From the NCBI GenBank assembly GCA_964348275.1, contig CAYGBT010000009.1, forward strand, positions 19,541 to 83,540: a DNA stretch of 64,000 bases, read 5' to 3'. Positions within the stretch are counted from its first letter, which is position 1. Each line of letters begins with the position of its first letter. Below are positions 19,818 to 61,017 of this stretch, in pieces. The notes beneath the pieces were generated by a model. That model was not told the DNA's origin and searched no databases. It was given only the letters and a program-made list of their open reading frames with translations. Position numbers and translations under genes: made by a program. Source of the stretch: an uncultured bacterium (GTDB taxonomy: Bacteria; Methylomirabilota; Methylomirabilia; Methylomirabilales; CSP1-5).

Positions 19818-19866
19818 TCTGAACGACGTACTCTGAACTATGAACTTTGATCTCTGAACTGTCAAC
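19818..19866. repeat. tandem heptamer array (7 x 7 nt: TCTGAAC GACGTAC TCTGAAC TATGAAC TTTGATC TCTGAAC TGTCAAC)
   Basis: Exact 7-nt phase over 49 nt in the ftsK-rnj spacer. The last unit contains the rnj stop codon. Confidence 0.8.
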
Positions 19867-21535
19867 AGGGACCTTCCTCCACCTCGATGATAAGCGGCAG
19901 GACCATAGGCCGTCGTTCAAAGGTCTTCTGAATGAACTTTCGCAGGCTTGCCCTCACGTTCTCTTTGAGGAGTGCTGTATCCCCCCGTTCCTCCTCCGGA
20001 CAGGTCTCGAGGACCTCGTTCACCAACCGCTTGGCCGCATCAAAGAGAGCCTCCTGATCCTGCGAATGAACGAACCCGCGTGAGATGATTTCAGGGCCCG
20101 CCACAATCGCTCTGGTTCGGGGATGAAGGCCCATCACTACCACGACCATTCCATCCCGGGCCAGATGCTGCCGCTCTCGCAGGACGGCATCCCCTACATC
20201 GCCCACACCCTTCCCGTCCACGAAGACGCGTCCCCCTGTCACCTTGCCAATAATCCCACCCTTGTCGGGGGTAAAATGCAGGATATCCCCGTTCTCCGCC
20301 AGGAAGATATCGTCTGGGGCAATCCCGACCGCCGCTGCCAACCGTGCATGATGATACCGGTGCCGATATTCTCCGTGAATCGGGATAAAAAACTTTGGTC
20401 GGACCAGGTTGAGCATCAGCGTCAGTTCTTCTTGGCAAGGATGGCCTGACACATGAACAGGAGCGTACTCCTCGGTGACGACCTCCGCTCCCCTTTTGAG
20501 AAGCTGATTAATGGTCCGCGTGATGGACCTCTCGTTCCCCGGGATGACCCTGGCAGAGAAGATCACGGTGTCCCCCGGGGTGATCTCAATCTGCTTGTGC
20601 TCCCCCGCAGCCATCCGGGCAATGGCGGACAGCGGCTCGCCTTGTGAACCCGTCGCAATGATCACGGTCTTGCCCGGAGATACGTGTCTCAGCTCGTCCA
20701 GGCGAACCAGAACGCCGGGCGGGATCTTCAGGTACCCGAGATCCGCAGCGATGCGGGTATTCGCGATCATGCTCTTGCCGTGGACTGCTACCCGCCTCCC
20801 CATCCTGGCGGCGACGTCCAGGATCTGTTGGATCCGGTGGATGTGGCTGGCAAAACACGCAACGATGATCCGCCGCTCGACCGTTCGGAAGATTTCGTCC
20901 AAGGCTCGACCCACCGTCCGTTCGGAGGGGGTGAACCCTGGCCGCAAAGCATTAGTCGAGTCGGAGAGCAGCACCAGGACGCCCCGATCTCCCAGCTCGG
21001 CGAACTTGTGATAGTCGGTGAGCTGCCCATCCACCGGAGTCGGATCAAATTTGAAATCCCCCGCGTGAACGACAAGGCCCGCCGGCGTTTCCAGGGCCAC
21101 GCCGACCCCGTCGGGGATGCTGTGGCAGACCCGCATGCATTCCACCTGGAGAACCCCCATGCTGAATCGTTCCCGGGGGACGATCTGCCGCAGGTCAGCC
21201 TTGACATTCTGTTCCCGGATCTTTTCAGCCGCGAGCCCCAGGGAGAGAGGGGTTCCGTAGACGGGGATAGGAAGTTCCTTGAGCAGGAAGGGAAGGGAGC
21301 CAGTATGGTCTTCGTGGCCGTGGGTGAGAATAAGCCCGCGAATCTTCTCACGGTGCTGGAGAAGATAATCGAAATCGGGGATCACCAGATCAATCCCTAG
21401 CATCTCCTCCTCGGGGAACATCAGTCCAGCATCGATGACAACCATGTCTTCCGGCGTCTCGATCACGAACATGTTCATCCCGATCTCCCCGAGACCACCT
21501 AGGGGAATGATCCGGACCCATTCATTTTCCAGCAA
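19862..21535 (-). CDS. rnj: ribonuclease J
   Basis: Metallo-beta-lactamase/beta-CASP pattern (THGHEDHTG) and RNase J C-terminal domain; 557 aa. Confidence 0.92.
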   Translation of the reverse strand: MLENEWVRIIPLGGLGEIGMNMFVIETPEDMVVIDAGLMFPEEEMLGIDLVIPDFDYLLQHREKIRGLILTHGHEDHTGSLPFLLKELPIPVYGTPLSLGLAAEKIREQNVKADLRQIVPRERFSMGVLQVECMRVCHSIPDGVGVALETPAGLVVHAGDFKFDPTPVDGQLTDYHKFAELGDRGVLVLLSDSTNALRPGFTPSERTVGRALDEIFRTVERRIIVACFASHIHRIQQILDVAARMGRRVAVHGKSMIANTRIAADLGYLKIPPGVLVRLDELRHVSPGKTVIIATGSQGEPLSAIARMAAGEHKQIEITPGDTVIFSARVIPGNERSITRTINQLLKRGAEVVTEEYAPVHVSGHPCQEELTLMLNLVRPKFFIPIHGEYRHRYHHARLAAAVGIAPDDIFLAENGDILHFTPDKGGIIGKVTGGRVFVDGKGVGDVGDAVLRERQHLARDGMVVVVMGLHPRTRAIVAGPEIISRGFVHSQDQEALFDAAKRLVNEVLETCPEEERGDTALLKENVRASLRKFIQKTFERRPMVLPLIIEVEEGPC

Positions 21536-21592
21536 CGTGTGCGACCCCCAATCTCTGCGCTCTCCTCTTCGCAGTCGAACGGCACATTCCGA

Positions 21593-25180: not shown

Positions 25181-25219
25181 CACGCCTGCTTTTTGCAGGA
25201 AAGGGACCTGGAACGGTGC

Positions 25220-25363: not shown

Positions 25364-25573
25364 ATGGAGGTGCGGGTAAAAGGTAAAGTGAAGTGGTTCA
25401 ATGACGCTAAGGGCTTCGGCTTCATCGAGCGGCCCGACGGTGATGATGTCTTCGTCCACTACACCGCCATCACAGGGACCGGCTTCCGATCGCTCACGGA
25501 AGGTCAGGAAGTCGAATTCGATATCGTCGACGGCCCCAAGGGCAAGCAGGCGGCCAACGTGACCAAGGCGTAG
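25364..25573 (+). CDS. cspA: cold-shock protein (CspA family)
   Basis: [16 protein letters not shown] and DVFVHY RNP motifs. ATG at 25364 preceded by GGAGGAAAGGAGGG; the track ORF starts spuriously at 25253. Confidence 0.93.
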
Positions 25574-25594
25574 TTTCCCCTTATTCCTAAAAAA

Positions 25595-25624
25595 GGCCCC
25601 GGCTCACCGGGGCCTTTCTTTTTT
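25595..25624 (+). terminator. rho-independent terminator of csp
   Basis: GGCCCCGG-CTCA-CCGGGGCC stem-loop followed by TTTCTTTTTT. Confidence 0.85.
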
Positions 25625-25703
25625 CCCCTCGATTATGGGGCCGGAAAGCAAGTACGCACCGTCTCCCCACAGCCGTGCCCAGCGCAAACCATGTGCGGCG
25701 CCT

Positions 25704-25807
25704 CTAGTACCGTTCCAATTTGATACGCCGCATTTGAGGGGGACTTCTTCCAACAGTCGTGAGCGTGTGCAGCGACAAGTTGGCAGAAAATAATTGGAAC
25801 GGTACTA
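25704..25807. mobile_element. MITE-like element, copy A (about 104 bp, about 17-bp terminal inverted repeats CTAGTACCGTTCCAA)
   Basis: TIRs CTAGTACCGTTCCAATT...AATTGGAACGGTACTA. About 85-90% identical over its full length to the reverse complement of 32211-32318. Confidence 0.7.
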
Positions 25808-25832
25808 ATGCAACCGTATTAGATCTAGCGAT

Positions 25833-26055
25833 AATGGAGCAATAGAGCATTAGACCGCCCCTCGATCCTCCCCCTCGATCTTCCTCGGGGCCGTGAGGCT
25901 CTCGAACGGCTCGGGGTGGTGAGCGGTTCGGCTGAGCTCACCGTCGAAGCCCTGTCGAACCACAATGGAGCCTATTGCTTCCAAATCGCTCTATTGTTCC
26001 ACCCTTCGACAGGCTCAGGGCGGTGAGCATAGTCGAACCGCTGCTCCATTGCTCC
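25833..26055. repeat. compound palindromic element (about 220 bp)
   Basis: Outer arms GGAGCAATAGAGC / GCTCCATTGCTCC. Inner 43-bp arms 25921-25963 and 25999-26043 are about 85% reverse-complementary (GAGCGGTTCGGCTGAGCTCACCG...CTGTCGAAC). One frame translates as the PFDRLRA-type artefact peptide. Confidence 0.65.
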
Positions 26056-26084
26056 AAAGTAAACGCACTAAGTGCGTTTACTTT
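26056..26084 (-). terminator. perfect 14-bp palindrome overlapping the stop of the 45-aa zinc-ribbon ORF (terminator-like hairpin)
   Basis: AAAGTAAACGCACT-A-AGTGCGTTTACTTT. It has no long U-tract, so termination activity is uncertain. Confidence 0.35.
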
Positions 26085-26220
26085 AGACGGTCCTTACCAG
26101 GTCCTCCACCGCCACTTCGATGCCGCACACCTCGCAGTGGACGCTGCCCCCCACCTCCGCCATGTCGAACTCCATCACGGAACAGAAAGGGCAGAATCGA
26201 ATGTCTCTCTCCTGCGCCAT
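26083..26220 (-). CDS. 45-aa zinc-ribbon protein (CPFC...CEVC), absent from the ORF track because it is under 60 aa
   Basis: ATG preceded by GGGAGGAGG...GAAAGGAAG. Translation: MAQERDIRFCPFCSVMEFDMAEVGGSVHCEVCGIEVAVEDLVRTV. Confidence 0.45.
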   Translation of the reverse strand: MAQERDIRFCPFCSVMEFDMAEVGGSVHCEVCGIEVAVEDLVRTV

Positions 26221-39853: not shown

Positions 39854-39955
39854 CAGTTCACGGTTCACTGAGTTTAGTTCACGGCTCACAGTTCACCGTT
39901 CACAGACTTCTTCTCTCCGCGCTGCAGTGAACCGTCCGCCGTGAACTGTGAACTG
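39854..39955. repeat. heptamer-repeat hairpin (6 x NGTTCAC, loop, 3-4 x GTGAACN) downstream of tRNA-Met
   Basis: CAGTTCAC GGTTCAC ...GTTCAC GGCTCAC AGTTCAC CGTTCAC ... GTGAACC GTCCGCC GTGAACT GTGAACT. Confidence 0.8.
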
Positions 39956-40043: not shown

Positions 40044-40132
40044 GAGTTCACGGTTCACAGTTGACAGAAAGAAGACAGCCACTCCGTTGCTCTAGACTGT
40101 GGATCGTGAACTGTGAACCGTCAATTGTGAAC
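40044..40132. repeat. heptamer-repeat hairpin (3 x GTTCACN/GTTGACA, loop, 5 x NGTGAAC) upstream of tRNA-Met
   Basis: GAGTTCAC GGTTCAC AGTTGAC ... TGTGGAT CGTGAAC TGTGAAC CGTCAAT TGTGAAC. Confidence 0.8.
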
Positions 40133-40148
40133 GAGCCCCGCGGGGGCT

Positions 40149-47050: not shown

Positions 47051-47791
47051 TCAATGCCTTTTCCGTGCCTTTTTTCCCCTTTTTTTGTATTCCGTCTTCT
47101 TTTTCCCTACGCGCCCCTCAAACTCTCTCCACAGTTGATTCAAGGAGATACCACGTGCCCCGAGAAGGACCAGGGTGTGAAACCACAGATCGACCACTTC
47201 ATAGATGATGTCCTGCCGCCGCCCCCGCTTGACGCTCAACAGGATTTCAGACGCCTCTTCAGTGATCTTCCTCAGGATCTGATCCTCCCCCTTCTGGAAG
47301 AGCGAGCTCACGTAGGATCCTGGGGGGCGCTTCTTCTTCCGCTCTAGAATGGTCCGATACACTGCATCGAGAACCTGGGAGGAATGCCCATAGACCGCCT
47401 CAGGGTGAAAGACCTGCTGGGTGACCGGGGCGGAGGAGGTGAGGTTCTTTCGGACGCGCCGGAAGAAACACGACCGATAGCCGAGATGGCAGGCAGCCAC
47501 CTGCTGCTCTACCTGGAGGAGAAGGGCGTCGCCGTCACAGTCGAGGCGGATTTCTCCGACCCGCTGCACATGCCCTGACTCTTCCCCCTTCTTCCAAAGC
47601 CGACGCCGAGACCGGCTGTAGTAGTGCGCAAAGCCAGTTTTCAGGGTCTTCCGGAGCGCCTCCCGGTTCATATAGGCCACCATCAAGACGTGGCCCGTCC
47701 GGGCATCCTGGGCGATGGCCGGAATGAGACCCTTACTGTCAAATTTAACCTTGGCGGGGACTTTCGCCACATTCACCCCCCTCTGCTTCAC
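47051..47791 (-). CDS. hisI: bifunctional phosphoribosyl-AMP cyclohydrolase / phosphoribosyl-ATP pyrophosphatase HisIE
   Basis: HisI core (GLIPAIAQD...CDGDALLL) plus HisE tail (EEASEILL...EVVDLWFH). The GTG start at 47791 lies inside a heptamer block; in-frame GTGs at 47776/47770 are alternatives. Confidence 0.9.
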
Positions 47792-47812
47792 AGTTCACGG
47801 CTCACGCTTGAG
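47786..47812. repeat. heptamer block (CTTCACA GTTCACG GCTCACG)
   Basis: Same GTTCACN family as at the tRNA. Overlaps the annotated hisIE start. Confidence 0.6.
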
Positions 47813-47883
47813 GGTCCGATGTCAGAGGTCGCGAAGAGCGAGGAGGGGGTTCCTTCCGAGGCAGGCGACATCTGGCTTGCGTC

Positions 47884-47909
47884 TTCGAAGGAGTCCGGAG
47901 TCCTTCGGA
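47884..47909. repeat. 26-nt imperfect palindrome built from GGAGTCC units
   Basis: TTCGAAGGAGTCCGGAGTCCTTCGGA, centred on TCCGGA, in the hisF-hisIE spacer. Confidence 0.55.
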
Positions 47910-48057
47910 CAGGCCGGGGTCCCGCCGCCGAAGCGCAGCGCAGGCGGGGGTGGCCCGCACTAGCGAATGACATCGCCTGATCGTGCGTAACGATGCCTCT
48001 GCGCATCAAGTCCTCGGAGAATTATGGCGCCGCCGAGGAAGGTCCCGCTGAGCTCTT

Positions 48058-48099
48058 GGCTGTCGGTTGTCGGTCATCGAGTAACGGTCGTCGGTCACC
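48058..48099. repeat. tandem heptamer array (6 x 7 nt: GGCTGTC GGTTGTC GGTCATC GAGTAAC GGTCGTC GGTCACC)
   Basis: Exact 7-nt phase, located immediately after the hisF stop. Confidence 0.75.
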
Positions 48100-48105
48100 G
48101 GGGCC

Positions 48106-48975
48106 TTAAAGGCGTACCGGGATGCCCCGTTCTTTCAGGTACGCCTTGGCTTCGCCAACGGAGATCTCGCGGAAGTGAAAGATGGAGGCAGCGAGTGCCG
48201 CATCCGCCTTGCCATGAGCAAAGGCCTCGAACAGATGCGCCATTGTCCCGGCTCCCCCGGAAGCGATCACCGGCACCCCCAGGCGCTCGGCGACCGACCG
48301 AGTCAGTTCCAAATCATACCCGTCCCGTGTTCCATCGCGGTCCATGCTGGTCAGTAGAATTTCCCCCGATCCCAACGCCACCCCTTGCTCCGCCCAACTC
48401 ACCGCATCGAGACCGGTCGGCGTCCGACCACCGTGAATATACACCTCCCACGACAGTCCGAGGTCCGACGTCGGAGGTCCGACGTCGGAGGACCGAGGTC
48501 CGAGCTCTGAGATCCGAGGATCGGTATCTAACGGTTTCATACTCGACTTCGCACTTCGGACTTCGGACTTCGCACATCTCTTGGCATCGATGGCAAGGAC
48601 AATGCACTGGCTTCCGAACCGTTCTGCCGCCTCTCGAATCAGCTGCGGGTTTTGCACCGCTGCCGTGTTGAGGGAAACCTTATCGGCCCCCGCCAGGAGA
48701 AGAGCACGGATATCCTCTGCGTCCCGGACACCGCCTCCCACGGTGAGCGGGGTGAAGGCCCGCTCTGCGGTTTTTTCGACCACGCCAATCAGGATCTTCC
48801 TGCGCTCAGCCGATGCGGTGATGTCGAGGAACACCAGCTCATCTGCCCCTTCCTGATCGTATCGCTCCGCAACTTCAGCCGGATCTCCCGCGTCTCGAAG
48901 ATCCACGAACCGGGTCCCTTTGACCACACGGCCATCCTTGACATCCAAGCAGGGGATGATCCGCCTCGCTAACAT
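48106..48975 (-). CDS. hisF: imidazole glycerol phosphate synthase cyclase subunit HisF, carrying a 42-aa repeat-encoded insertion
   Basis: Canonical HisF ends ([16 protein letters not shown]...; ...[23 protein letters not shown]). 289 aa versus about 250 expected; the extra segment [12 protein letters not shown]...SDLGLS maps to 48451-48576. Confidence 0.9.
48455..48580. repeat. 18 consecutive heptamers (126 nt) inside hisF: 10 x NGTCCGA-type, 3 degenerate, 5 x ACTTCGN (reverse-complement type)
   Basis: AGTCCGA GGTCCGA CGTCGGA GGTCCGA CGTCGGA GGACCGA GGTCCGA GCTCTGA GATCCGA GGATCGG TATCTAA CGGTTTC ATACTCG ACTTCGC ACTTCGG ACTTCGG ACTTCGC ACATCTC. Confidence 0.85.
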
Positions 48976-49703: not shown

Positions 49704-49718
49704 TCGAACGGCTCCTCC

Positions 49719-49900
49719 GCTGTCAGCAATCAGTTTAAGGCTAGCTATCAGCCGTCAGCAATCAGCAAATATTAGCTACCAGCAGTCAACAATCGGCTCC
49801 CAGCTATTAGACTCCTTTGAGTCGAGAGATCAAATCCTTTAAGCTTCTCATGGCTGACAGCTGCCAACTTACTGACCCCTGACAGCTGACTGCGACAGCT
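49719..49900. repeat. heptamer-repeat hairpin filling the hisA-hisH spacer (about 13 x GCNNTCA-type units, loop, about 7 x TGACAGC-type units)
   Basis: Left arm GCTGTCA GCAATCA ... GTCAGCA ATCAGCA ... GCTACCA GCAGTCA ... GCTCCCA GCTATTA. Right arm GCTGACA GCTGCCA ... GACAGCT GACTGCG ACAGCT. GCTGTCAGC (49719) is complementary to GCTGACAGC (49853). Confidence 0.75.
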
Positions 49901-50545
49901 CTACCTTTGGGCCAGTCTGCCAAAATTGGCAAGCAGCTGAAGGCCCAGCCTTTGGCTCTTCTCAGGATGAAACTGGGTAGCGAAGAGGTTATCCCGCCAG
50001 ATCATGGAGGTGAAAGAGATTCCGTATTCGGTGACGCCGGCTATGACGCCCTTCTCCTCCGGTTCCACGTAGTAGGAGTGAACGAAGTAGAAGTAGGAGC
50101 CGTCCGGGATCCCCTCCATAATCGGTACCTCTTTGCTTAGGTGTACCCGGTTCCACCCCATATGCGGAACCTTCAGCCGTGATGACCGATGACCGATGGC
50201 CGATGACGGGAAGGCCTCGGGAAAGCGACGGACTCGACCCGGGAGAAGATCAAGGCCCTTATGGAGGCCAAACTCCTCGCTCTCAGAAAAGAGGAAATGG
50301 AGGCCAAGGCAGATTCCCAGGACTGGCTTCCCTGATTTGACCTCCCGGCGTAGAGGATCGAGGAACCCTGCCGTCTCTAATGTTGCAATCCCGTCGGCAA
50401 AGGCACCGACCCCCGGGAGGACGATTCCCGCCGCATCCGCAAGCCGCTGCGGTTCTTTGACCACGCACGCGGAGACCCCGACTTTCTCGAAACCTTTCTC
50501 CACGCTCCGGAGATTGGCGATCCCGCTATCGATAATCGCAATCAC
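49901..50545 (-). CDS. hisH: imidazole glycerol phosphate synthase glutamine amidotransferase subunit HisH, with a short repeat-encoded insertion
   Basis: GVGAF, ICLG (Cys nucleophile), PHMGWN and FHPEKS motifs. The extra segment EAFPSSAIGHRSS precedes PHMGWN. Confidence 0.92.
   Translation of the reverse strand: MIAIIDSGIANLRSVEKGFEKVGVSACVVKEPQRLADAAGIVLPGVGAFADGIATLETAGFLDPLRREVKSGKPVLGICLGLHFLFSESEEFGLHKGLDLLPGRVRRFPEAFPSSAIGHRSSRLKVPHMGWNRVHLSKEVPIMEGIPDGSYFYFVHSYYVEPEEKGVIAGVTEYGISFTSMIWRDNLFATQFHPEKSQRLGLQLLANFGRLAQR
50181..50208. repeat. 4 tandem heptamers inside hisH (GATGACC GATGACC GATGGCC GATGACG)
   Basis: Reverse complement of the GGTCATC unit seen at 48072. Encodes SSAIGHRSS. 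Confidence 0.8.
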
Positions 50546-50549
50546 GTTA

Positions 50550-50648
50550 GTTTACCGTTCTCGGTTCACAGTTCACAGGAAAGACTCGAAGGCGCCATGA
50601 TCGCGGCTGGATACCGTGAACCGTGAACTGTCAACTGTGAACAAGCGG
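50550..50648. repeat. heptamer-repeat hairpin in the hisH-hisB spacer (4 x GTTCACA-type, loop, 5 x CCGTGAA-type)
   Basis: GTTTACC GTTCTCG GTTCACA GTTCACA ... CCGTGAA CCGTGAA CTGTCAA CTGTGAA CAAGCGG. Confidence 0.8.
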
Positions 50649-50650
50649 TG

Positions 50651-51238: not shown

Positions 51239-51269
51239 GCGTCTTTCCTTGGCCCTCAAGGCCCTCCCT

Positions 51270-52562
51270 CTACGACCGTTGCCGGATCCGGACGGCCCGG
51301 GCATGGCCATCAAGCTCCTCGAGAGACGCTAACGTCATGGCAGGGCCTCCCAGCCGCTTCAGCCCTTCCTCGGTGAAGTGCAGGAGACTCGTGCGGTGTA
51401 CGAAATCCTCCACGGAGAGGGGGGAGGCAAACCGTGCCGTCCCGCCGGTGGGAAGAACATGGTTCGGACCAGCAAGATAATCCCCCAGAGCCTCGGGGGA
51501 GTAGGCTCCAAGGAAGATGGCTCCCGCATGCCGGATACGGTCCAGGTGGGACCAAGGGTCCTCGCAATGGAGCTCCACATGCTCAGGAGCGATGGCGTTG
51601 ACCAGCGTGAAGGCAGCCTCCAGGGTCGGCACCAAGAGGATGGCCCCGTTTTTGGCGAGGCTCGCCTCGGCAATCCTACGCCGGGGAAGATCATCGAGCT
51701 GCCGTCGGAGTTCGGCCGCCACCTTCTCAGCCACCGCTCCGCTGACGGTGATGCACAGGGTCATGGCCATCTCGTCATGTTCTGCCTGGGCGAGGAGATC
51801 CGCAGCCACATACGTGGGCTCCGCGGCTTCGTCTGCTACGACAACGACTTCGGTCGGTCCAGCAATTGTGTCGATGCCCACGACCCCGGCCACCAGCCGC
51901 TTGGCGGTCGCCACATAGATGTTGCCTGGACCCACGATCTTGTCCACCCTCGGGATGGAAGCCGTGCCATGCGCCAAAGCCGCGATCGCCTGCGCCCCGC
52001 CCACTTTGTAAATCTCCGTAATCCCCGCCAGCGAGGCGGCCACGAGAACCCCCGGATGCACCATGAGATCGGAAGCGACGGGGGTACACATCACCGTCCG
52101 CTTGACCCCCGCGACCGCAGCGGGGATGCCGTTCATCAAGACGGTGGACGGATAGACCGCCTTTCCCCCGGGAATGTAGATCCCGACCGCCTCCAGCGGC
52201 CGGCAGAGCTGGCCGAGGACCGCTCCCTCTTCGGTGACAAACCAAGAGTCGGGGAGCTGCCGGCGGTGAAACGTTTCAATCCTCCCTGCAGCCAGTCGCA
52301 AGGCCTCGACCGTCTCGGGAGCGAGATGGTCAAAAGCCCGCTCCACCTCTCCCGACGTGACCCGGAGCGTCGTGGGTGTGAGAGAAGCCCCGTCGAAACG
52401 CTGCACGTACTTCAAAAGCGCCGGATCCCCCTCCTCCCGTACCCCGGTGAGGATGGGGCGAACCGCCTCCTCTGCCTCGGCGGAAGCGGTAGCCCGGCGC
52501 AGGGCGAGCTCTCTCAAAAAGGCAACCCCTTCGTCCCCCTCCGCGTGGAGGAGTCGAATCAT
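51270..52562 (-). CDS. hisD: histidinol dehydrogenase HisD
   Basis: 430 aa with GPGNIYV, AGPTEV, QAEHD and APEHVEL motifs. Confidence 0.95.
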   Translation of the reverse strand: MIRLLHAEGDEGVAFLRELALRRATASAEAEEAVRPILTGVREEGDPALLKYVQRFDGASLTPTTLRVTSGEVERAFDHLAPETVEALRLAAGRIETFHRRQLPDSWFVTEEGAVLGQLCRPLEAVGIYIPGGKAVYPSTVLMNGIPAAVAGVKRTVMCTPVASDLMVHPGVLVAASLAGITEIYKVGGAQAIAALAHGTASIPRVDKIVGPGNIYVATAKRLVAGVVGIDTIAGPTEVVVVADEAAEPTYVAADLLAQAEHDEMAMTLCITVSGAVAEKVAAELRRQLDDLPRRRIAEASLAKNGAILLVPTLEAAFTLVNAIAPEHVELHCEDPWSHLDRIRHAGAIFLGAYSPEALGDYLAGPNHVLPTGGTARFASPLSVEDFVHRTSLLHFTEEGLKRLGGPAMTLASLEELDGHARAVRIRQRS

Positions 52563-53215
52563 GCTCCCCCTCCCTGAACGACGACCGTCAGTCGATCAAT
52601 CAGCTCACGGACTTGCCGGTACTTGGTCTTCAGGGCCGCCCGGTTCACAATGAGCCGAGCCGTCGAGGTGACAATCTGTTCCGTCTCCTCTAACCCGTTC
52701 TCCTGCAAGGTCCGCCCCGTCGTGACCAGATCCACGATCCGCTCGCAAAGCCCTCCCAGCGGTGCCAGCTCGATGGAGCCCGAAAGGTGAATGATCTCCA
52801 CCTGCATTCCCTGATCGGTGAAGTACCGTTCGGTCAATTTCGGATACTTCGTCGCCACCCGGAGGGAAGAGAAACCCATAGGTCTCCCTCGATTCTCGGG
52901 CTTCTTCGGCTGAGCTACCACCAGACGGCATGTTCCAAATTTGAGGTCTAGGGGTTCGTAGACATCCCGGTCCTGCTCGAGAAGGATATCCTTTCCCACC
53001 ACGCCCACATCGGTCGCCCCGTACTCTACATACGTGGGAATGTCGACCGCGCGGAGGACCAGGAAGCGGTATGCCCCGGTCACGTCTTCGCACAGGAGGC
53101 GCCGGGACTCCGTCAACCCCTCCAGTCCGTGGATCCCGGTCGCCTCGAAGAGCTTAAGGGTGTCTGAGAGGAGTCGTCCTTTTGGAAGGGCGATCGCAAT
53201 CTGTCCCTGTCGCAT
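52559..53215 (-). CDS. hisG: ATP phosphoribosyltransferase, short form HisG
   Basis: IALPKGRL...DIPTYVEYGATDVGVVGKD...LVTTGRTLQENGL; 218 aa. Confidence 0.93.
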   Translation of the reverse strand: MRQGQIAIALPKGRLLSDTLKLFEATGIHGLEGLTESRRLLCEDVTGAYRFLVLRAVDIPTYVEYGATDVGVVGKDILLEQDRDVYEPLDLKFGTCRLVVAQPKKPENRGRPMGFSSLRVATKYPKLTERYFTDQGMQVEIIHLSGSIELAPLGGLCERIVDLVTTGRTLQENGLEETEQIVTSTARLIVNRAALKTKYRQVRELIDRLTVVVQGGGA

Positions 53216-54472
53216 TCAGCCCTCCACCCGCTGGATTTCCCCCCCCAGGGAGCGAATCTTCGCCTCTAATTGTTCGTAGCCCCGATCCAGGTGATAGATG
53301 CGATGAACCACGGTCTCCCCGCGCGCCTGGAGTCCTGCCAAGACTAAGGAGGCACTCGCGCGGAGGTCGGTCGCCATCACGGGGGCTCCTCGGAGAAGGG
53401 AAACACCCCGGACCACGGCCGTCCGGCCCCCAACCGTAATATCGGCTCCCATCCGCAAGAGCTCAGGAACGTGCATAAAGCGATTCTCAAAGACCGTCTC
53501 TGTGATAGCAGACTTGCCTTTGGCAACCGCCATCAGGGCCATGATCTGGGCTTGCATATCGGTCGCGAAGCCGGGGAAGGGGGCGGTGGTAATATCCACC
53601 GGCCGAGGGCGGTTCGCCATTCGTATCCGCAGTCCCCCCTCGTCGAGCGCCACGGCCGCTCCCGCCTCCTCAAGTTTTGCCGTCACCGCTTCAAAGTGTT
53701 CGGGAACGCACCCCTGAATCACGACATCGCCCTGGGTAATGGCCGCTGCCACCGCCAAGGTCCCTGCCTCAATCCGATCCGGGATAATCCGGTGCGAGGC
53801 ACCCTTAAGTTCCTCGACCCCCTCAATGGTGATGGTGGAGGTTCCAGCCCCTTGGACCCGAGCCCCCATCCCTTGAAGGAGGCGAGCTAAGTCCTCGACT
53901 TCTGGCTCGCAGGCGGCATTTTCGAGGACTGTCGTCCCCTTGGCTAACGTCGCCGCCATCATGAGATTTTCCGTGCCCGTCACCGTGACCGTTTCAAAGC
54001 GAACGCGGGTCCCAGTCAGGCGAGGGGCCTTGGCCACCACGTATCCATCCACCAGGTCGATCTCCGCCCCCATCTCCTGCAGCCCGGTCAAATGCAGGTT
54101 GATGGGTCGGGGTCCAATGGCACACCCGCCCGGGAGCGACACCCGGGCTTTGCCAAATCTGGCGAGGAGCGGACCCAGCACCAAGACTGAGGCCCGCATG
54201 GTCCGTACGAGATCGTACGGAACCTCGAACCGTTGAATCGCCCGTGAGGTGAGACTCGCGGTCCCCGGAGCCACTTGGCGCGACTCCACTCCCATGAACA
54301 TGAGTAGCCTCTCGATCGTCGCCACATCCCGGAGCGACGGGACATTCTCGAACCTCAGCTCTTCAGAAGTGAGTAGGACCGCCGCCATAGCGGGAAGGGC
54401 AGCATTTTTTGCCCCGCTCACCGACGCGCTGCCGCACAACGGCTTCCCACCTCGAATCACCAACCGATCCAT
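53216..54472 (-). CDS. murA: UDP-N-acetylglucosamine 1-carboxyvinyltransferase MurA
   Basis: [27 protein letters not shown] start (418 aa), beginning 1 nt after the prmC stop. The track ORF extends to 54568. Confidence 0.94.
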
Positions 54473-54473
54473 C

Positions 54474-55454
54474 TCACGCTCCGTTCGATCCTTTGACCAT
54501 CTCGTTCGGGGGGAAAGCCTTCTCCCTGACCTCTGCCTTCCACAACCGTCGACCCGTGCAGCGGGCAATGATCACCCGCTGCCTTCCGCTCAAATCGGGG
54601 ACGACCGCTACATCCGAGAAGACCCCCTGATCCCGAAAAAGCCTGTTGAGCGAGTGTCCCTGCCCCACTGTCATCTCCAGGGCCAACCATCCGGCTGGTC
54701 GGAGCAAAACCGAAGCCCCACTGATGATTCGCCGGTGAAAGGTGAGGCCGTCCTGTCCCCCATCCAAAGCCTCCACGGGTTCGTAGCGTACCTCGGGGGG
54801 CAATGTTGGCAGATCTCCCGTCGCGACGTAAGGTGGGTTGCTTACGATAAGGTCGAACTGGCCGCCAAGGCCCCGGGCGAAGAGCGGATGTAGTAGATCT
54901 CCTTGGAGGAAGGAGATCTGCTGGAGGACGCCGTGACTCTTGGCATTTTCCCTGCCCACCTCGATGGCCTTCCTGCAAACATCCGTCGCATAGATCTTCG
55001 CGCGTGGGAGCTGCTTCGCCATCGCCACGGCAATCGCCCCGGAGCCGCTCCCGATATCCGCGATCACGGGCGCCTCCTCCTCAGCCAGTCGCGCGAGAGC
55101 CGTCTCCACCAGGATCTCGGTCTCGGGCCGGGGGATGAGGACGACAGGGTTCACCTTGAGGGACAGGGACCAGAATTCCTTCGTTCCGGTGAGATAAGCC
55201 AATGGCTCGCGGGCCTGCCGCCGGGCGACAAGGGTCCTGTATGCTTCAAGAACCGGAAAAGACAACAGTTCTTGAGGAGCGGCATAGAGGTGGAGCCGGT
55301 CACAGCCAATGAGAGAAGCCAAGAGACATTCGGCGTCCAGCCGAGGAGTATCCACCCTGGCAGATTGCAGGAGCGCAGTCGCCCACACTATCGTCTCGCC
55401 AATAGATGGACCCCGCGGGGTGAGGACTACTTTTTCCTTGACCAACAGTCCCAC
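54474..55454 (-). CDS. prmC: peptide chain release factor N5-glutamine methyltransferase PrmC
   Basis: [12 protein letters not shown] motif and NPPY catalytic motif. Confidence 0.9.
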
Positions 55455-55475
55455 TGCACTTCTCCCTACTGGGGT

Positions 55476-56579
55476 TCATGATGCTGATGAGGCCTTGAGT
55501 CGCTCCGCCTCGTAATGGGCCATGAGGGCCTGCGTCAACTCTTGGAGGTTGCCACTGAGCACTTCTGGAAGATTATAGAGGGTTAACCCGATGCGATGAT
55601 CGGTCACCCGGCCCTGGGAAAAGTTGTACGTCCGGATCCGCTCGCTTCGATCCCCCGTCCCTACCTGCTGCCGCCTGGCGTCGGCGATCTCCCGCTCCTG
55701 CTCGGCCCGGGCTTGCTCCAAAAGACGCGCCCGGAGGACCTTGAGGGCCTTGGCCTTGTTTTTGTGCTGTGACCGTTCGTCCTGACAAGACACCACCAGG
55801 CCTGTCGGGAGGTGGGTGATACGCACCGCCGAGTCAGTCACATTCACATGCTGCCCCCCGGCACCGCTCGCCCGGAAGACGTCGATCTGGAGATCCTTCG
55901 GGTCGATCTGAACATCCACCTCCTCCGCCTCGGCCAGGACCGCTACCGTCACCGTCGAGGTGTGAATTCGACCGCTGGCCTCGGTCACCGGCACCCGCTG
56001 GACACGATGGACGCCACTCTCGTGTCGGAGCTTTCCGAAGGCCCCCTTCCCCTCAATCGCCAAAATGACCTCTTTCATCCCCCCGATTCCCGTGGGATGG
56101 GCCGAGAGCATCTCCACTTTATAGCTGGCAGACTCCGCATACCGGGAATACATCCGAAGAAGATCGGCGGCGAACAACGCCGCCTCATTGCCGCCGGCCC
56201 CGGCTCTGATCTCTATAATCACGCCCTTCTCGTCCGCCGGGTCCTTGGGAATAAGCATCCCGTGCAGCTCATGCTCCAGGACGTCTCGCCGACCCCTCAG
56301 CGCTTTGAGTTCGGCCTCGGCTAACGCCCCCATCTCCGGATCGGTCGTCTCCGCAAGGAGGGCCGTCGCCTCCTCCTGTTCATGAATCAGTCGCTGGTAA
56401 ACCCGATATTTTTCCACGATGGGATGGAGATCGGCGTGGGCCTTGGCGTGGCGCTGATAGGTGTTGGGATCCTGCAAAACGGCGGGATCGGCAAGCTTCT
56501 GGCTCAAGTCCTCGTACCGCTCCTCGATTTCCCGCAACTTGTCGAGCCAGGTCAACATTCGAGCTCGTTCACACTTCAC
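55476..56579 (-). CDS. prfA: peptide chain release factor 1
   Basis: PVTE tripeptide-anticodon motif (in [15 protein letters not shown], where RF1 normally has PxT) and GGQ (SGAGGQHVN). The GTG at 56579 lies in a heptamer block; the ATG at 56558 ([15 protein letters not shown]) is an alternative start. Confidence 0.94.
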
Positions 56580-56638
56580 CGGTCACCGACAGGTCCTTCA
56601 CCCCCACTCGGTAATCCGTGAATTATGAACCCGAATCC
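56566..56638. repeat. degenerate heptamer hairpin in the rpmE-prfA spacer (CGTTCACA CTTCACC GGTCACC ... CTTCACC / CCGTGAA TTATGAA CCCGAAT)
   Basis: Same xTTCACx / xGTGAAx family. Overlaps the prfA start and the rpmE stop. Confidence 0.6.
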
Positions 56639-56838
56639 GCCTTGCGGCGATATCTTCGCTGAAATCGCTCCACCCGCCCCTCGCTATCCACGAGCTTCTG
56701 ACGTCCAGTAAAGAAGGGATGGCACTTGGAGCAAATTTCCACCCGGATCTTCGGCACGACCGAACGGGTATGCATCACCTCGCCGCACGCGCAGGTAATG
56801 GCACAATCGACGTACTCAGGATGGATGCCTTTTTTCAT
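56623..56838 (-). CDS. rpmE: 50S ribosomal protein L31 (zinc-binding type)
   Basis: [19 protein letters not shown]...[10 protein letters not shown]. The track ORF extends upstream to 56958. Confidence 0.93.
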
Positions 56839-56893
56839 CTCGGTTTCTCCCATCCAGGGTGCACACGATGCCGAACGCCCCTCACCCGTGCTC

Positions 56894-56921
56894 ATTGTAG
56901 CACGCTGGGCCTCCGCGGCAA
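56894..56921 (-). promoter_or_regulatory. sigma70-like promoter (TTGCCG-N16-TACAAT) for rpmE-prfA-prmC-murA-his
   Basis: Minus strand: TTGCCG at 56921-56916 and TACAAT at 56899-56894, directly after the rho terminator. Confidence 0.4.
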
Positions 56922-56923
56922 CG

Positions 56924-56948
56924 AAAAAGCAGCCTTCCGGCTGCTTTT
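56924..56948 (-). terminator. rho-independent terminator after rho
   Basis: GCAGCC-GGAA-GGCTGC followed by TTTTT on the minus strand, about 25 nt after the rho stop. Confidence 0.7.
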
Positions 56949-56970
56949 GTCCGCGCAACTGCGCACCTGT

Positions 56971-58338
56971 CTAGGCGTTCATGGAACGTAGAAAGTCCGC
57001 GTTGTCTTTGGTCTCGGACAGTTTCCCCTGGAGGAGCTCCATCGCCTCCACGACCCCCATGGTGGCCAGGACCTTCCGGAGGACCCACATCCGGTTCAGC
57101 TCCTCTTGGGTCAGGAGTAGCTCCTCCTTGCGGGTCCCTGACCGGAAGATGTCGATGGCAGGAAACATCCGCTTGTCCACCAGACGTCGGTCCAGGTGAA
57201 GCTCCATATTCCCGGTGCCCTTAAACTCTTCAAAGATCACATCGTCCATCCGACTACCGGTATCGACCAAGGCCGTCGCGATGATGGTAAGAGATCCCCC
57301 CTCCTCGGTGTTCCGGGCCGCCCCGAAGAAGCGCTTGGGGCGCTGCAGGGCGTTGGCGTCGATTCCTCCCGAGAGAACTTTGCCGCTCGGCGGACAGACC
57401 GCATTATACGCGCGGGCGAGTCGGGTGATCGAGTCGAGCAGGATGACCACATCCCGCCTGTGCTCCACGAGACGTCTGGCCTTTTCCAAAACCATCTCCG
57501 CCACCTGGACGTGGCGACTGGCCGGCTCATCAAAGGTCGAGCTAATTACCTCCGCCTTCACCGACCGCTGAAAATCGGTCACCTCTTCCGGACGCTCATC
57601 GATCAGGAGCACGATGAGAAAGACCTCAGGGTGATTCTTGGTGACGCTGTTCGCAATCTTTTGCAGAAGGATCGTCTTCCCGGTCCGGGGCTGCGCCACG
57701 ATCAATCCCCGCTGCCCCTTCCCGATGGGCGTAATCAAATTCATGACCCGCATATTGATCTCATCACCCGTGGTTTCGAGGCCGATCCGCTCGTTGGGAA
57801 AGAGAGGAGTGAGGTTGTCGAACAGGGTCTTGTCCTTGATCACCTCGGGGTTTTCAAAGTTGACTGCCTCCACCTTGAGCAGCGCGAAATAGCGCTCCCC
57901 CTCCTTCGGCGGTCGGACCTGCCCCGATACGGTGTCGCCGGTCCTCAGATCGAAGCGCCGGATCTGGGACGGGGAGACGTAGATGTCGTCGGGGCCAGGA
58001 AGATAGTTATAGTTGGGCGCCCGGAGGAAGCCAAAGCCATCCGGGAGGACTTCCAGGACTCCCTCGGCAAAGATGAGCCCGTTCTTCTCTGCCTGGGCCT
58101 CCAGAATCTTGAAGATGAGTTCCTGCTTCCGTAGGGCGCTAGCGCCGACCAAGCCGAGGGAGCGAGCGATGGCGGTGAGTTCGGGGATCGTCTTTTCCGT
58201 CAACTCCGCCAAATTCATCAGACCTTCGCGGGGCGTGTCCTTGACCGCATCCCGGGCTACGGCTTTCGTCTCTCTTGTCTCTTTCCCCTCTTTGGTCACT
58301 TCTTTGGCGGCATCGGCCGCATGGCGTTGAGGTGACAT
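56971..58338 (-). CDS. rho: transcription termination factor Rho (possible 40-aa basic/acidic N-terminal extension)
   Basis: [23 protein letters not shown] begins at codon 41. RNA-binding and ATPase motifs are present ([15 protein letters not shown]). Confidence 0.95.
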
Positions 58339-58623
58339 GGCGCTTTCTCTTTCTCCTTCTCCGTCCGGTCGCGGGACTTACAACAATGCCTCAGCTCTTG
58401 TACCCTCTCAATTTAGCCCCTGACGTATCTTTGATCACTGCACATCGATGCAGGACGAGGCGCGGTCGCCCAGGATAGAGTGTGGGGGCGGGATGAAATT
58501 CTCCGTTTGCGGACAGCACCCGATACAGGGAATCTCCCAAGGCAGATCAGAACAGCTGGAGAACAGTGGAGGAACTTACTTGAGAGTGCTGAGGAGATAT
58601 CTACATCCGGAATGTCTAATGCT

Positions 58624-58652
58624 ATGCTAAAGAGCCCCTCAGGGCTTGTCAA
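58624..58652 (-). promoter_or_regulatory. sigma70-like promoter (TTGACA-N17-TAGCAT, upstream A-tract) for rho, giving a leader of about 280 nt
   Basis: Minus strand: TTGACA at 58652-58647 (overlapping the coaE stop), TAGCAT at 58629-58624, preceded by AAAAAAAA. Confidence 0.4.
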
Positions 58653-59260
58653 GTTTTTTTTGAGCCAGTTTGGAACAGCACCTCGTATATCTCCTGCACC
58701 CTTTGCTCCGTTTCCCAAAGATCCCCTCCATTCTCGATAACGAAATGAGCCCGCGTGACCTTCTCTGAAAGAGGCATTTGACTGCGAATACGAGCCAAAG
58801 CCTCTTCCCGGGTCAGGCCCCGGTCTGCCATGAGGCGCCCCACCTGCACCTCCTGTGGGGCGGTGACGACGACCACGGAATCGAACCGACGCTCAGACTC
58901 GGCCTCGATGAGCAGGGGGAGCTCCACCACGCATATGGAGACCCCTTGTGTCCGAAGTTGAGCCACCCGCTGTTGGACCGCGGCAACGAGGGCAGGGTGA
59001 ACGATGGTTTCAAGTTGCCTCCGTCCCTTCTCATCACGAAAGACGATCTCGCCTAGGGACTTGCGATCGATCGTGCCGTCGTCTCGCAGAATCAGGGTAC
59101 CGAAGGCCTCGACAATGGCTTCATAGACTGATGTGCCTGGCTTTTGCAATTCTCGGACCATCTCATCAGCATCGAGGACCGCAGCCCCCCGCTCCGCAAA
59201 CATCCGGGCGACGGTACTCTTGCCGGTCGCAATCCCCCCCGTGAGCCCCACAAGCATCAT
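58649..59260 (-). CDS. coaE: dephospho-CoA kinase
   Basis: MMLVGLTGGIATGKST start (203 aa). The track ORF extends to 59524, overlapping the exonuclease gene. Confidence 0.9.
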   Translation of the reverse strand: MMLVGLTGGIATGKSTVARMFAERGAAVLDADEMVRELQKPGTSVYEAIVEAFGTLILRDDGTIDRKSLGEIVFRDEKGRRQLETIVHPALVAAVQQRVAQLRTQGVSICVVELPLLIEAESERRFDSVVVVTAPQEVQVGRLMADRGLTREEALARIRSQMPLSEKVTRAHFVIENGGDLWETEQRVQEIYEVLFQTGSKKT

Positions 59261-59264
59261 ACGA

Positions 59265-60128
59265 TCAGAGCATCCCTCGCGCAGGACCCTCGAGATTGGT
59301 GAGCAACCGAGTAAACTCGAGCTCCTGGAATAACACCCGAAGTCGTTCCCAATCGGGGGGCTGGCGTCGTAAGGCCTCCGCCGTGACTGAAAAGGGAAGG
59401 TCGGTCCGGATAGTGACAAGAGCTCGGTTCGCCCGGATCTGCTCGGCATGGGTCTTGAGGGCCTCGCGCAGCTTTTGCCGCTTGACCTGATCCAGAGACT
59501 GCAGGAGATTCTCCACCGTCCCAAATTCTTGAATCAAGGAGCTGGCCGTTTTCTCCCCCACTCCCGGCACTCCCGGGATGTTGTCAACGGCGTCCCCCGT
59601 GAGACTCATCAGGTCCACCATTGCGCGAGGCGGCACCCCATACCGACCCTCCACGTCCTCAACGCGATAGATCTTGTCGCGCATGGGATCGTACACCTGG
59701 ACGGCAGGTCCCACGAGCTGGAACAGATCCTTGTCACCCGAAACGATAGTCACCTGAAAGCCATCACCAACCGCTCGAGTTGCAACCGTCCCAATAATGT
59801 CGTCCGCCTCGTAACCCTCCTCCATCAGGGTCGGAACATTGAGGGCCTCCACAACCTGGTAGACATACGGGATCTGCGAGGCAAGGGCATCGGGTATGGG
59901 CGGACGCTGCGCCTTGTAGGCCTCATACTCTCGGTGACGCTCCGTCTCCCCTCCAGCATCAAACACTGCGGCCGCATGTTCCGGAGCCCGCTCCCGCATG
60001 ACCTTCAAGAACATATTGGTAAAGCCGTAGATCGCTCCGGTCGGGAGCCCCCGAGAATTGCTCAAGGGTGGAAGGGCATAGAAGGCTCGATAGATGTAGG
60101 ACGTTCCGTCAATAAGGTATAACTGCAT
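59265..60128 (-). CDS. stand-alone 5'-3' exonuclease / flap endonuclease (PolI N-terminal domain homologue, no polymerase domain)
   Basis: MQLYLIDGTSYIYRAFYA..., the GDKDL motif and an H3TH (GDAVDNIPGVPGVGEKTA). 287 aa, ending where the Klenow region would begin. Confidence 0.88.
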   Translation of the reverse strand: MQLYLIDGTSYIYRAFYALPPLSNSRGLPTGAIYGFTNMFLKVMRERAPEHAAAVFDAGGETERHREYEAYKAQRPPIPDALASQIPYVYQVVEALNVPTLMEEGYEADDIIGTVATRAVGDGFQVTIVSGDKDLFQLVGPAVQVYDPMRDKIYRVEDVEGRYGVPPRAMVDLMSLTGDAVDNIPGVPGVGEKTASSLIQEFGTVENLLQSLDQVKRQKLREALKTHAEQIRANRALVTIRTDLPFSVTAEALRRQPPDWERLRVLFQELEFTRLLTNLEGPARGML

Positions 60129-60256: not shown

Positions 60257-60985
60257 TCAGCGAAGGTCACCCCAGCGATACTGAAGGATACTGAGAGCCG
60301 CTATTGCAGCGGTCTCCGCCCGCAGGGTCCTGGGCCCGAGGGAAACGGGCACAAAGCCCGCCTTTTTCAAGAAGGTTACCTCGTCCGTCTCCAGCCCTCC
60401 CTCCGGACCCACCAGGATCTTGACCTCATCCGGGAGGGGAGTCTGCTCCAAGAGTGTGGCGAACGTCCCCACCCGCTCGCTCTCCCAAAACACAAAAGCG
60501 GCAGTGCGGCTCGGCCCGACCACATGTTGCTCAAGGGGGAGCGGTCCGGTGAGTTTTGGGACACGCAACCGACCTGATTGCTCCGCCGCCTCAATGGCAA
60601 TCCGTTCCCACCGGACCACCTTGCCCAGTCCCTCAGCCACCGTCCGCCTGGTCAACAGGAGGACAATCTCGGCCACCCCCATCTCTGTCGTCTTCTGGAT
60701 GAGGTAATCCATCTTGTCTCCCTTCAGAAGCCCTTGAAGCAGCACAACGCGAAGGGGAGACTCCCTCGGCGTTGCGCTTTCTGCCACAATGCGACCCACG
60801 ACTTGTCGCGGAGAGGCTCCCACAATTTCCACTTCCCACTCCCGCCCGCTGCCGTTGAAGATTAGGATGCGGGCGCCCACGCACATCCGAAGCACCCGCG
60901 TAATCTGACGAGCTTGAGGCGGGCTGAACTGAACCTTGTCACCCAGTCGGCACTCCCCAATAACAAAAAATCGATGCATCTTCAA
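60257..60985 (-). CDS. rsmE: 16S rRNA (uracil1498-N3)-methyltransferase RsmE
   Basis: MHRFFV...RVLR N-terminus and the C-terminal SPOUT knot (GPEGG...LGPRTLRAETAA). Confidence 0.9.
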   Translation of the reverse strand: MKMHRFFVIGECRLGDKVQFSPPQARQITRVLRMCVGARILIFNGSGREWEVEIVGASPRQVVGRIVAESATPRESPLRVVLLQGLLKGDKMDYLIQKTTEMGVAEIVLLLTRRTVAEGLGKVVRWERIAIEAAEQSGRLRVPKLTGPLPLEQHVVGPSRTAAFVFWESERVGTFATLLEQTPLPDEVKILVGPEGGLETDEVTFLKKAGFVPVSLGPRTLRAETAAIAALSILQYRWGDLR

Positions 60986-60989
60986 AAGT

Positions 60990-61017
60990 GTCCGAAGTCC
61001 GATGTCCGAAGTCGAAG
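60990..61017. repeat. 4 tandem heptamers (GTCCGAA GTCCGAT GTCCGAA GTCGAAG) immediately upstream of the rsmE start
   Basis: Same GTCCGAN unit that forms the hisF insertion. Confidence 0.75.

Follow-up and report, generated by a model that had tools for sequence, protein, structure and literature searches.

Tandem heptanucleotide arrays and inverted heptamer hairpins in a genome of the NC10 lineage

Heptanucleotide repeats in other bacteria

Heptanucleotides are the most abundant long simple sequence repeats (SSRs) in most genomes with repeats of 5-11 nt, and slippage has been proposed for them (Mrazek 2007, as summarised in PMC4679880 and PMC4692102). Here we describe arrays of this kind in a 64 kb stretch of contig CAYGBT010000009.1 of assembly GCA_964348275.1 (hereafter the window), where they lie mainly between genes and most are inverted pairs that fold as hairpins. 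A first-pass annotation of this DNA had proposed that it carries arrays like the short tandemly repeated repetitive (STRR) sequences of cyanobacteria in a genome that is not cyanobacterial, and both parts of this proposal are borne out. Indeed, the nearest named HisF homologues (at most 84% identity) are labelled Candidatus Methylomirabilales or NC10, and blastn showed contig JABAOF010000288.1 of GCA_012974965.1, a metagenome-assembled genome (MAG), to be 99.7% identical to positions 47598-59706 of the window. The notion that heterocystous cyanobacteria are marked out by such repeats is outdated, since heptamer repeats are known in Xanthomonas, Geobacter metallireducens, Beggiatoaceae and Bacteroidetes. 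The window is not their first occurrence outside the cyanobacteria; it adds a new phylum, Methylomirabilota (NC10), to a known kind of repeat. Our literature search returned no paper linking Methylomirabilis with heptamer repeats, and a search for GTTCAC dimer strings returned unrelated animal, plant and chlamydial papers only.

In Calothrix and Nostoc/Anabaena, as in the window, the repeats are dispersed, mostly intergenic 7-nt tandems, often beside start codons, with several families per genome. In Nostoc 7120, GAC(C/T)AAT and TTTTGAA arrays lie near start codons and a binding partner is suspected; the window unit GACCGAT is one base away from the former (10.1101/2022.06.06.494920). Unlike the STRR sequences, the present arrays sit in an NC10 host with a genomic G+C content of 60% and most of the loci are inverted hairpin pairs, whereas the G-rich repeats of Nostoc form few pairs (PMC4692102). 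In the strict sense, STRR denotes the units STRR1-3 in a heterocystous cyanobacterial host; here the host is an NC10 bacterium and the units are related, not identical. The GTTGACN variants resemble the unit of STRR3, which we take to be CAACAGT and which presumably goes back to Mazel et al. 1990.

Xanthomonas genomes each carry approximately 185 GGGAATC arrays, of which 70-75 form convergent inverted pairs (Rehm et al. 2015, PMC4692102). Their positions are kept between species while length and sequence vary, and some units have free positions (GGGANTN), features that recur in the arrays described here (PMC4692102). Xanthomonas differs in possessing one G-rich, G-quadruplex-capable family; the NC10 units fall into several families and are devoid of G-tracts. 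A run of three or more G or C is absent from the common unit families tallied, with ACACCCC in Methylomirabilis oxyfera as an exception, and the G-tracts that mark the G-quadruplex subclass of Xanthomonas and Nostoc are lacking.

Geobacter metallireducens harbours several classes of tandem repeat (7, 8 and 8-9 nt; for example, MTYCTGA in five copies) that occur as opposite-strand pairs with variable spacing, and 49 elements of four GGACCGG heptamers, both inter- and intragenic, that are absent from its sister species (Aklujkar et al. 2009, PMC2700814). The paired sites have been read, as a proposal only, as binding sites of a global regulator (integration host factor, IHF, or HU), and insertion sequence (IS) elements lie at a fixed distance from them (PMC2700814). 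Paired short tandem arrays on opposite strands, variable spacing and copies within genes are common to Geobacter and the window; Geobacter differs in having other periods besides 7, and population-level variation of cassettes is not described there. Direct repeats of TAACTGA are known from Beggiatoaceae, cyanobacteria and Bacteroidetes (MacGregor 2015, PMC4679880). Like the present arrays, they occur in distant phyla, reach from a stop codon to the next start, carry stops in all frames on one strand and lie occasionally within an open reading frame (ORF); unlike them, they are almost all direct, with one indirect set among 170, and a single unit dominates. GTTATCA, the rotated reverse complement of TAACTGA, is a variant unit within GTTCACN arrays at three of our comparison loci (L012, L038 and L095; labels of this form denote loci from related genomes or metagenomes).

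Extragenic inverted hairpin pairs in several families per genome, clustered, nested and within operons, are also typical of repetitive extragenic palindromes (REPs) and their BIME (bacterial interspersed mosaic element) and REPIN (paired REP) assemblies (e.g. PMC3116915). REPs have a fixed length of 20-40 nt, a conserved 5' tetranucleotide and a cognate REP-associated tyrosine transposase (RAYT), whereas here the arrays are periodic and of variable length and the window holds no RAYT gene. Instead of one conserved palindrome of 20-40 nt per family, we find arms of varying length, unique spacers and differing cores. Rickettsia palindromic elements are reportedly palindromic DNA inserted in frame at surface-exposed sites of conserved protein genes, and are alike in that respect; they are said to form conserved families of 100-150 nt and not heptamer arrays. 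Neither a conserved interior nor target-site duplications, as in MITEs (miniature inverted-repeat transposable elements), were seen, and the period of 7 nt with nothing between units differs from the 24-48 nt repeats and unique spacers of CRISPR arrays. The arrays thus stand among the heptanucleotide long SSRs: their units run head to tail in steps of 7 nt, above the expectation from composition, at many dispersed and mainly intergenic loci.

Architecture, persistence and exchange of the arrays

A lag scan of the window (every lag from 2 to 21, in 21-nt windows with at least 16 matches) returned 10 segments at lag 7, compared with 0.1 ± 0.3 in 30 dinucleotide-preserving shuffles and with 0-4 segments at every other lag. 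A genome-wide comparison with composition-matched shuffles had been named beforehand as one on which the proposal could fail; in the window, the excess is clear. Tandem Repeats Finder reported 39 arrays in the window, 17 of them with a period of 7 or 14, at the coordinates previously annotated. Among the 12 loci listed at first, ten reach at least 14 of 21 matches (19818, 39854, 40044, 47786, 48058, 48455, 49719, 50181, 50550 and 60990), while those at 47884 and 56566 are weak.

The inverse block said to follow many arrays is real in E1, E2, E3, E6, E7, E9 and E10 (Table 1). These seven of the 11 elements consist of (unit)n, a unique spacer and (reverse-complement unit)n, and fold as long hairpins on both strands, the more stable strand reaching z scores between -2.5 and -6.8; the remaining four (E4, E5, E8 and E11) are single arrays with no inverted partner. 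The seven are paired tandem-repeat sites, with two opposite-strand arrays and a variable spacer, and 19-25 further hairpins of this design were found in relatives.

The elements are mainly intergenic, as a comparison of coding and intergenic density confirmed: intergenic DNA makes up 4,130 nt (6.5%) of the window and holds nine of the 11 elements, an enrichment of approximately 65-fold. All nine lie between co-directional genes, where they occupy eight of the 28 spacers of at least 40 nt and typically begin at a stop codon and extend as far as the ribosome-binding site or start codon that follows. The lag-7 score of the spacers is bimodal, at either 15-18 or at most 11 of 21, and the weak E10 spacer (11) is the sole occupied one at background level.

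Four unit families are present in the window, namely GTTCA[B][R] (the commonest), GTCAGCN, GTCCGAN and GACCGAT/GGTCATC. In agreement with the first-pass annotation, the elements do not derive from a single mobile sequence by copying: each spacer is unique, with no sequence shared between elements, and more than one unit family is present. In the GTTCA family, with 143 units from 33 arrays, conservation is approximately 0.95 over positions 1-5 (0.85 at position 4), 0.76 at position 6 and 0.69 at position 7. In a family-independent test on 25 hairpins, the column-conservation profiles of the two arms correlate in register (p = 4e-5), and the least conserved column is the same in both arms in 12 of the 25, against approximately 3.6 expected. 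Because these profiles coincide in register, the unit is best described as a conserved core of 5-6 nt with one or two free positions, which are the same in both arms. At the free position of 115 GTTCACN hairpins, one arm has a purine and its partner a pyrimidine (G:C 42, G:T 40, A:T 34, A:C 32). Two other measures of unit structure were discarded: sorted column conservation per array gave the same result as a uniform-rate simulation and was replaced by the register-aware tests, and a common GT[CT] unit start dissolved into weak biases among 135 distinct pooled units (GTC 1.3x, TGA 1.5x, ATG 0.57x).

Comparison with related genomes revealed the same kind of arrays in relatives, including M. oxyfera: lag-7 arrays number 12 in the 12.6 kb of L001, four in L002 and seven in 20.8 kb of M. 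oxyfera. Metagenomes contributed 18 NC10-like his loci (107 kb), which hold 95 lag-7 arrays (8.9 per 10 kb); every other lag stays at or below 1.3 per 10 kb, and lag 7 is ahead at least sevenfold. Lag 7 also leads in 62 his loci of unrelated origin, where it amounts to 1.2 per 10 kb and is concentrated in a minority of the loci. On the basis of these densities, the arrays are lineage-wide in NC10 and sporadic elsewhere. Several heptamer arrays lie near the his genes of four unrelated metagenome loci (L136, L137, L148 and L193; HisA identity of only 36-51%); the GTCAGCN hairpin of L137 resembles E7, and L172 has a GTTCAGA hairpin.

Sites persist across the lineage. The GTCAGCN hairpin between hisH and hisA (E7 in the window, where it begins 1 nt past the hisH stop codon and ends at the GGAGGAG ribosome-binding site) is kept in most NC10 lineages, with an outer stem GCTGTCAGC ... 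GCTGACAGC flanked by the stop codon and GGAGGAG. Nested in its loop is a GAGACNN hairpin in L120-L123, L125, L129, L128 and L001, and a GCTGGNA hairpin in L126 and L130; L002 has a short spacer without an array at this site, and the ATG follows immediately upon the stop codon in M. oxyfera. We had considered in-situ concerted drift for sites that hold different units, and abandoned it: nesting accounts for the hisH-hisA spacer and block replacement for hisF and hisH. Nor is the unit freely divergent: its type may hold at one site from lineage to lineage, and otherwise changes by nesting or by replacement of the whole cassette.

Within genes, the copies are in frame and stop-free in every lineage examined and lie in a protein loop. 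At the HisF site, the inserts found across the order comprise 0-50 residues with a 7-residue periodicity. In the window, E6 adds approximately 38 residues between AIDAKR and WEVY; solved HisF structures (PDB) align to residues 1-134 and 173-289, on either side of the insert, and AlphaFold assigns the barrel a predicted local distance difference test (pLDDT) score above 90 and the centre of the insert (residues 145-163) a score below 50, so that the barrel is predicted to be intact. E8 falls in a variable HisH loop ahead of LKVPHMGWN. Reading the coding copies directly, we find that a unit that would put TGA in frame is mutated, which shows that purifying selection acts on the arrays.

Close strains differ at the same sites. 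L123 and L122 (98.65% identical) are separated by two indels only, both in arrays: one is exactly one GAGACCN unit, and the other a 24-nt insert, GACTTCGGCGAGCTCAGTCGAGCC, placed exactly between two units of the hisF array (L123:2828-2851) in one strain only. Copies related to this 24-mer adjoin arrays in L001 (L001:178-201 and L001:2715-2765), one of them resembling a longer version of about 50 nt; the 24-mer may be a tiny dispersed element with arrays as its targets. L121 and L122 differ by a single nucleotide polymorphism in the 2.7 kb upstream of the hisF cassette, and at the 82-nt cassette itself one strain carries a GTCCAAA hairpin, the other strain a GTTCAGG hairpin. A third hisF cassette, GTCCAGA + CCTCAGC, which is not self-complementary, occurs in L199 and L200 between the same species-level flanks. 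Similarly, a 44-nt block in hisH is GTCATCG-type in L122 and GTCCTCA-type in L125, with equal length and identical flanks.

The GTTCACN hairpin also extends well beyond NC10. A scan of one genome per GTDB species with the pattern GTTCACNGTTCAC, 25-55 nt, GTGAACNGTGAAC returned at least 110 stretches, compared with approximately 0.07 expected by our own arithmetic under uniform base composition. Among the listed matches, which range in G+C from 33% to 73%, are Methylomirabilota, Planctomycetota, Nitrospirota, Acidobacteriota, Desulfobacterota, Verrucomicrobiota and Bacteroidota, as well as lineages of the candidate phyla radiation (CPR), Gammaproteobacteria, Anaerolineae, Microcoleus and a complete Petroclostridium genome; one Sedimentisphaerales MAG (Planctomycetota) possesses at least nine. 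The loci beyond NC10 also carry arrays of other units. Six of eight hairpins examined lie between co-directional ORFs, those with Pfam matches being housekeeping or metabolic, and two are in frame, in secA of an Uhrbacteria MAG and in the HATPase_c domain of a histidine kinase of a Nitrospiraceae MAG. Viral contigs contained no GTTCACN hairpin and were hence unusable as a control set.

Origin and role

As regards mechanism, we tentatively favour, with somewhat less than even confidence, the view that these are microsatellite-type heptamer hairpins, constrained by structure, remodelled by slippage, nesting and recombination, and retained where they do no harm. Slipped-strand mispairing would lengthen and shorten the arrays, new arm pairs would nest within the loops of older hairpins, and recombination between co-occurring strains would reshuffle them. 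Arrays would survive at harmless sites only: in spacers that separate co-directional genes, where they would reach from a stop codon to the ribosome-binding site that follows, or in surface loops of proteins, where the insert length is a multiple of three. The cores of the two arms would be held to complementarity, so that the insert, whether in mRNA or in single-stranded or cruciform DNA, would fold back and in effect be looped out, leaving the upstream stop codon near the downstream start codon; no dedicated function beyond tolerance need be supposed. We count in its favour the period-7 excess in the window and in relatives, the unique spacers and coexisting unit families, the retained hisH-hisA hairpin, the variable columns common to both arms, the one-unit indel of L123/L122, the mutated TGA units and predicted intact HisF barrel of the coding copies, and the housekeeping neighbours without a transposase in the window. 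A further array in its favour is that of L121, whose GTCCAAA units face a partly matching 3' arm, TTGGAC/TCGGAC, with GTCCGAA/TCGGAC in relatives.

A number of observations weigh against it. Neither the number of units (rho 0.08) nor, beyond the purine/pyrimidine rule, the free base of one arm is correlated with that of the other, and there is no sign of arm-to-arm copying; on these grounds we rejected template switching as the source of the arms, and the templated spreading suggested by the first-pass annotation is not supported. With hairpins oriented by transcription of the his operon, G-U does not outnumber A-C on the sense strand (sense versus antisense, 59 versus 57 G-U pairs and 9 versus 10 in dG, the folding energy), in a test of low power in which mismatches fall mostly at free positions. 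Change in unit number is rare, with one case among approximately six close strains and none in 12 kb between the window and its 99.7% identical MAG; the one clean change of +7 nt (L123/L122) lends limited direct support to slippage as the generating mechanism. Wholly different cassettes occupy one hisF or hisH site with sharp edges between approximately 99% identical flanks, and on a HisF core tree most species-level clusters hold a mixture of cassette classes, a pattern of swaps and scatter that drift and slippage do not easily explain. Furthermore, a two-array hairpin that arises de novo within conserved domains (hisF, secA, HATPase_c) resembles an insertion more than growth on the spot, and the recurrence of the same GTTCACN hairpin across phyla hints at a shared factor.

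It is doubtful, although there is a real chance of it, that the arrays are functional cis elements, acting either as RNA hairpins (at 3' ends, in protection from exonucleases or in translational coupling) or as DNA-binding arrays for a nucleoid protein or global regulator. The constraint on the core at the same positions of both arms would fit such a role, as would the long-lived sites, with a conserved hairpin base adjoining stop codon and ribosome-binding site, and the placement of every intergenic copy between co-directional genes; comparable proposals exist for Geobacter (IHF/HU, PMC2700814), for the TAACTGA repeats (PMC4679880) and for the Nostoc heptamers (10.1101/2022.06.06.494920). The GTTCACN hairpins of Sedimentisphaerales often precede T-runs, like intrinsic terminators, whereas no T-run follows the window elements and no intrinsic terminator was called for any element between 39 and 51 kb of the window. 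Several unrelated cores in one genome would require several binding proteins, a regulatory hairpin inside hisF or hisH is hard to rationalise, and one of the interchangeable cassettes (L199/L200) is not self-complementary. Likewise, the low-power comparison of strands revealed no asymmetry, and 20 of the 28 intergenic regions of at least 40 nt are without an array. A T-run, as in intrinsic terminators, commonly follows the GTTCACN hairpins in L010, L013, L060 and L022 (these four from the Sedimentisphaerales MAG) and in L027, L079 and L109, but does not follow the NC10 copies.

We consider it unlikely that the arrays are non-autonomous mobile DNA, comparable with REPINs or the small dispersed repeats of cyanobacteria, in which an unseen trans-acting enzyme would read the 5-6 nt core at 7-nt spacing, insert or exchange pairs of arms and prefer existing hairpins or arrays as targets. 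Such an enzyme would account for hairpins nested within the loops of older ones, for the sharp-edged replacement of cassettes between approximately 99% identical strains and their incongruence with the HisF tree, for in-frame copies in unrelated conserved genes of three phyla, and for the excess of GTTCACN hairpins over expectation. The 24-nt element exactly between units in L123, with related copies beside L001 arrays, and the IS elements at a fixed distance from Geobacter sites (PMC2700814) point the same way. Against this, the window and the surroundings of the elements hold neither a transposase nor a RAYT-like gene, target-site duplications and conserved ends were not seen, spacer and arm lengths vary freely, and no clean pair of filled and empty sites with defined ends was found; moreover, ordinary homologous recombination via the conserved hisF flanks would be equally able to swap cassettes. 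A broader version, that one trans-acting system common to many phyla (NC10, Planctomycetota, Nitrospirota, Desulfobacterota, CPR, cyanobacteria) writes, nests and swaps cassettes at fixed sites, including loops of essential enzymes, by reading the same core at 7-nt spacing, strikes us as quite improbable.

Lastly, contingency (phase-variation) loci, in which a change of unit number would switch genes on or off, are strongly disfavoured in spite of a short tandem unit that is not a multiple of three and the one +7 nt polymorphism: the sites lie in or between essential housekeeping genes (his operon, rpoD, prfA, ftsK), the intragenic copies stay in frame, the 12 kb at 99.7% identity show no difference in unit number, and no toggled frame or promoter is seen.

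Elements of the window, their neighbours and wider meaning

Table 1. Heptamer elements of the window (positions on the 64 kb stretch; dG and z, where two values are given, for the two strands)
Element	Position	Strand	Description	Evidence
E1	19785..19869	no strand	GTTCANN/NNTGAAC hairpin, RNase J-ftsK spacer	dG -34/-31, z -5.6/-4.2
E2	39854..39955	no strand	GTTCACN hairpin, tRNA-Met to CT398-like gene	dG -38/-52
E3	40044..40133	no strand	GTTCACN hairpin, rpoD to tRNA-Met	repeat scan, folding
E4	47786..47815	no strand	short single array CTTCAC AGTTCAC GGCTCAC, abuts hisIE start	
weak locus	47884..47905	no strand	GGAGTCC x2 then TTCGGAC (one inverse unit)	sequence reading only, very short
E5	48045..48100	no strand	single GGTCRTC array (gene strand GACCGAN), directly 3' of hisF stop codon	
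E6	48451..48585	-	GTCCGAN/NTCGGAC hairpin, in frame in hisF	
E7	49719..49900	no strand	long GTCAGCN/NGCTGAC hairpin filling hisH-hisA spacer	dG -61/-75
E8	50170..50213	-	single GATGACC array (gene strand GGTCATC), in frame in hisH	
E9	50548..50646	no strand	GTTCACN hairpin filling hisB-hisH spacer	
E10	56566..56640	no strand	weaker GTTCACN-type hairpin, rpmE-prfA spacer	11/21; dG -29; z -2.5/-3.1
E11	60985..61020	no strand	single GTCCGAN array, dnaJ-rsmE spacer	

Almost all genes of the window lie on the minus strand, and the neighbours of the arrays are all housekeeping (ftsK, RNase J, rpoD, tRNA-Met, the his operon, rpmE, prfA, rho, dnaJ, grpE, ntrY/ntrX). The sigma54/NtrYX signalling genes that had been cited against a cyanobacterial host were recovered, in that NtrY and a sigma-54 activator are encoded in the window. 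The stop codon of RNase J falls within an end unit of E1 and that of rpmE within the first unit of E10, and E5 has an orthologous array of the same unit in L001. A search of the window against Rfam 15 at gathering score matched tRNA-Met alone, and no family fits the arrays. This tRNA-Met (39963-40038) has a GTTCACN hairpin on either side (E2 and E3), and in another Methylomirabilales contig (L045) a GTTCACN hairpin lies directly 5' of an apparent tRNA start.

Other repeats in the window are not built from heptamers. The 5' end of the mutS2 ORF (46196-46233) contains a perfect 17-bp palindrome with a 4-nt loop (AACGATCGAGGGACCCCGCGAGGGGTCCCTCGATCGTT), and the grpE ORF, in its 5' part (62781-62823), has 2.4 tandem copies of an 18-nt unit (TCCTCGGCCGGCGCCGGC), a multiple of three that is unrelated to the heptamers. 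Tandem repeats of 8 nt (AATAGAGC) and 13 nt (CCCCTCGATCCTC) occur at 25833-25884, within the window's largest intergenic region (25460-26119), which separates divergent genes and is without a heptamer array.

Gene calls around two of the sites are uneven. In the 99.7% identical MAG, hisH is called as a fragment of 72 residues (L007:9585-9803, equivalent to window hisH 49901-50545) despite the lack of any DNA difference from the window in the hisH region, and between two assemblies of M. oxyfera (FP565575, L004, and a second one, L005; approximately 7465-9270), hisH has 210 residues in one, whereas the other lacks it or has small ORFs in its place. The arrays may disturb the calling of genes around them.

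Heptamer repeats have been on record for 35 years and are the commonest long simple sequence repeat in many bacteria. The arrays described here offer three handles on their origin and role: a constrained core with free positions that are the same in both arms; stable sites at which cassettes are yet exchanged or nested with sharp edges between approximately 99% identical strains; and the same GTTCACN hairpin, intergenic and in frame, in very distant phyla. Taken together, these make the choice between slippage and a dedicated machinery testable. In practical terms, the arrays add low-complexity loops to conserved enzymes, and they may disturb both gene calling and metagenome assembly. Were a shared trans-acting system to prove true, the STRR sequences, the Xanthomonas and Geobacter pairs and the NC10 elements would be products of one class of machinery and not of slippage.

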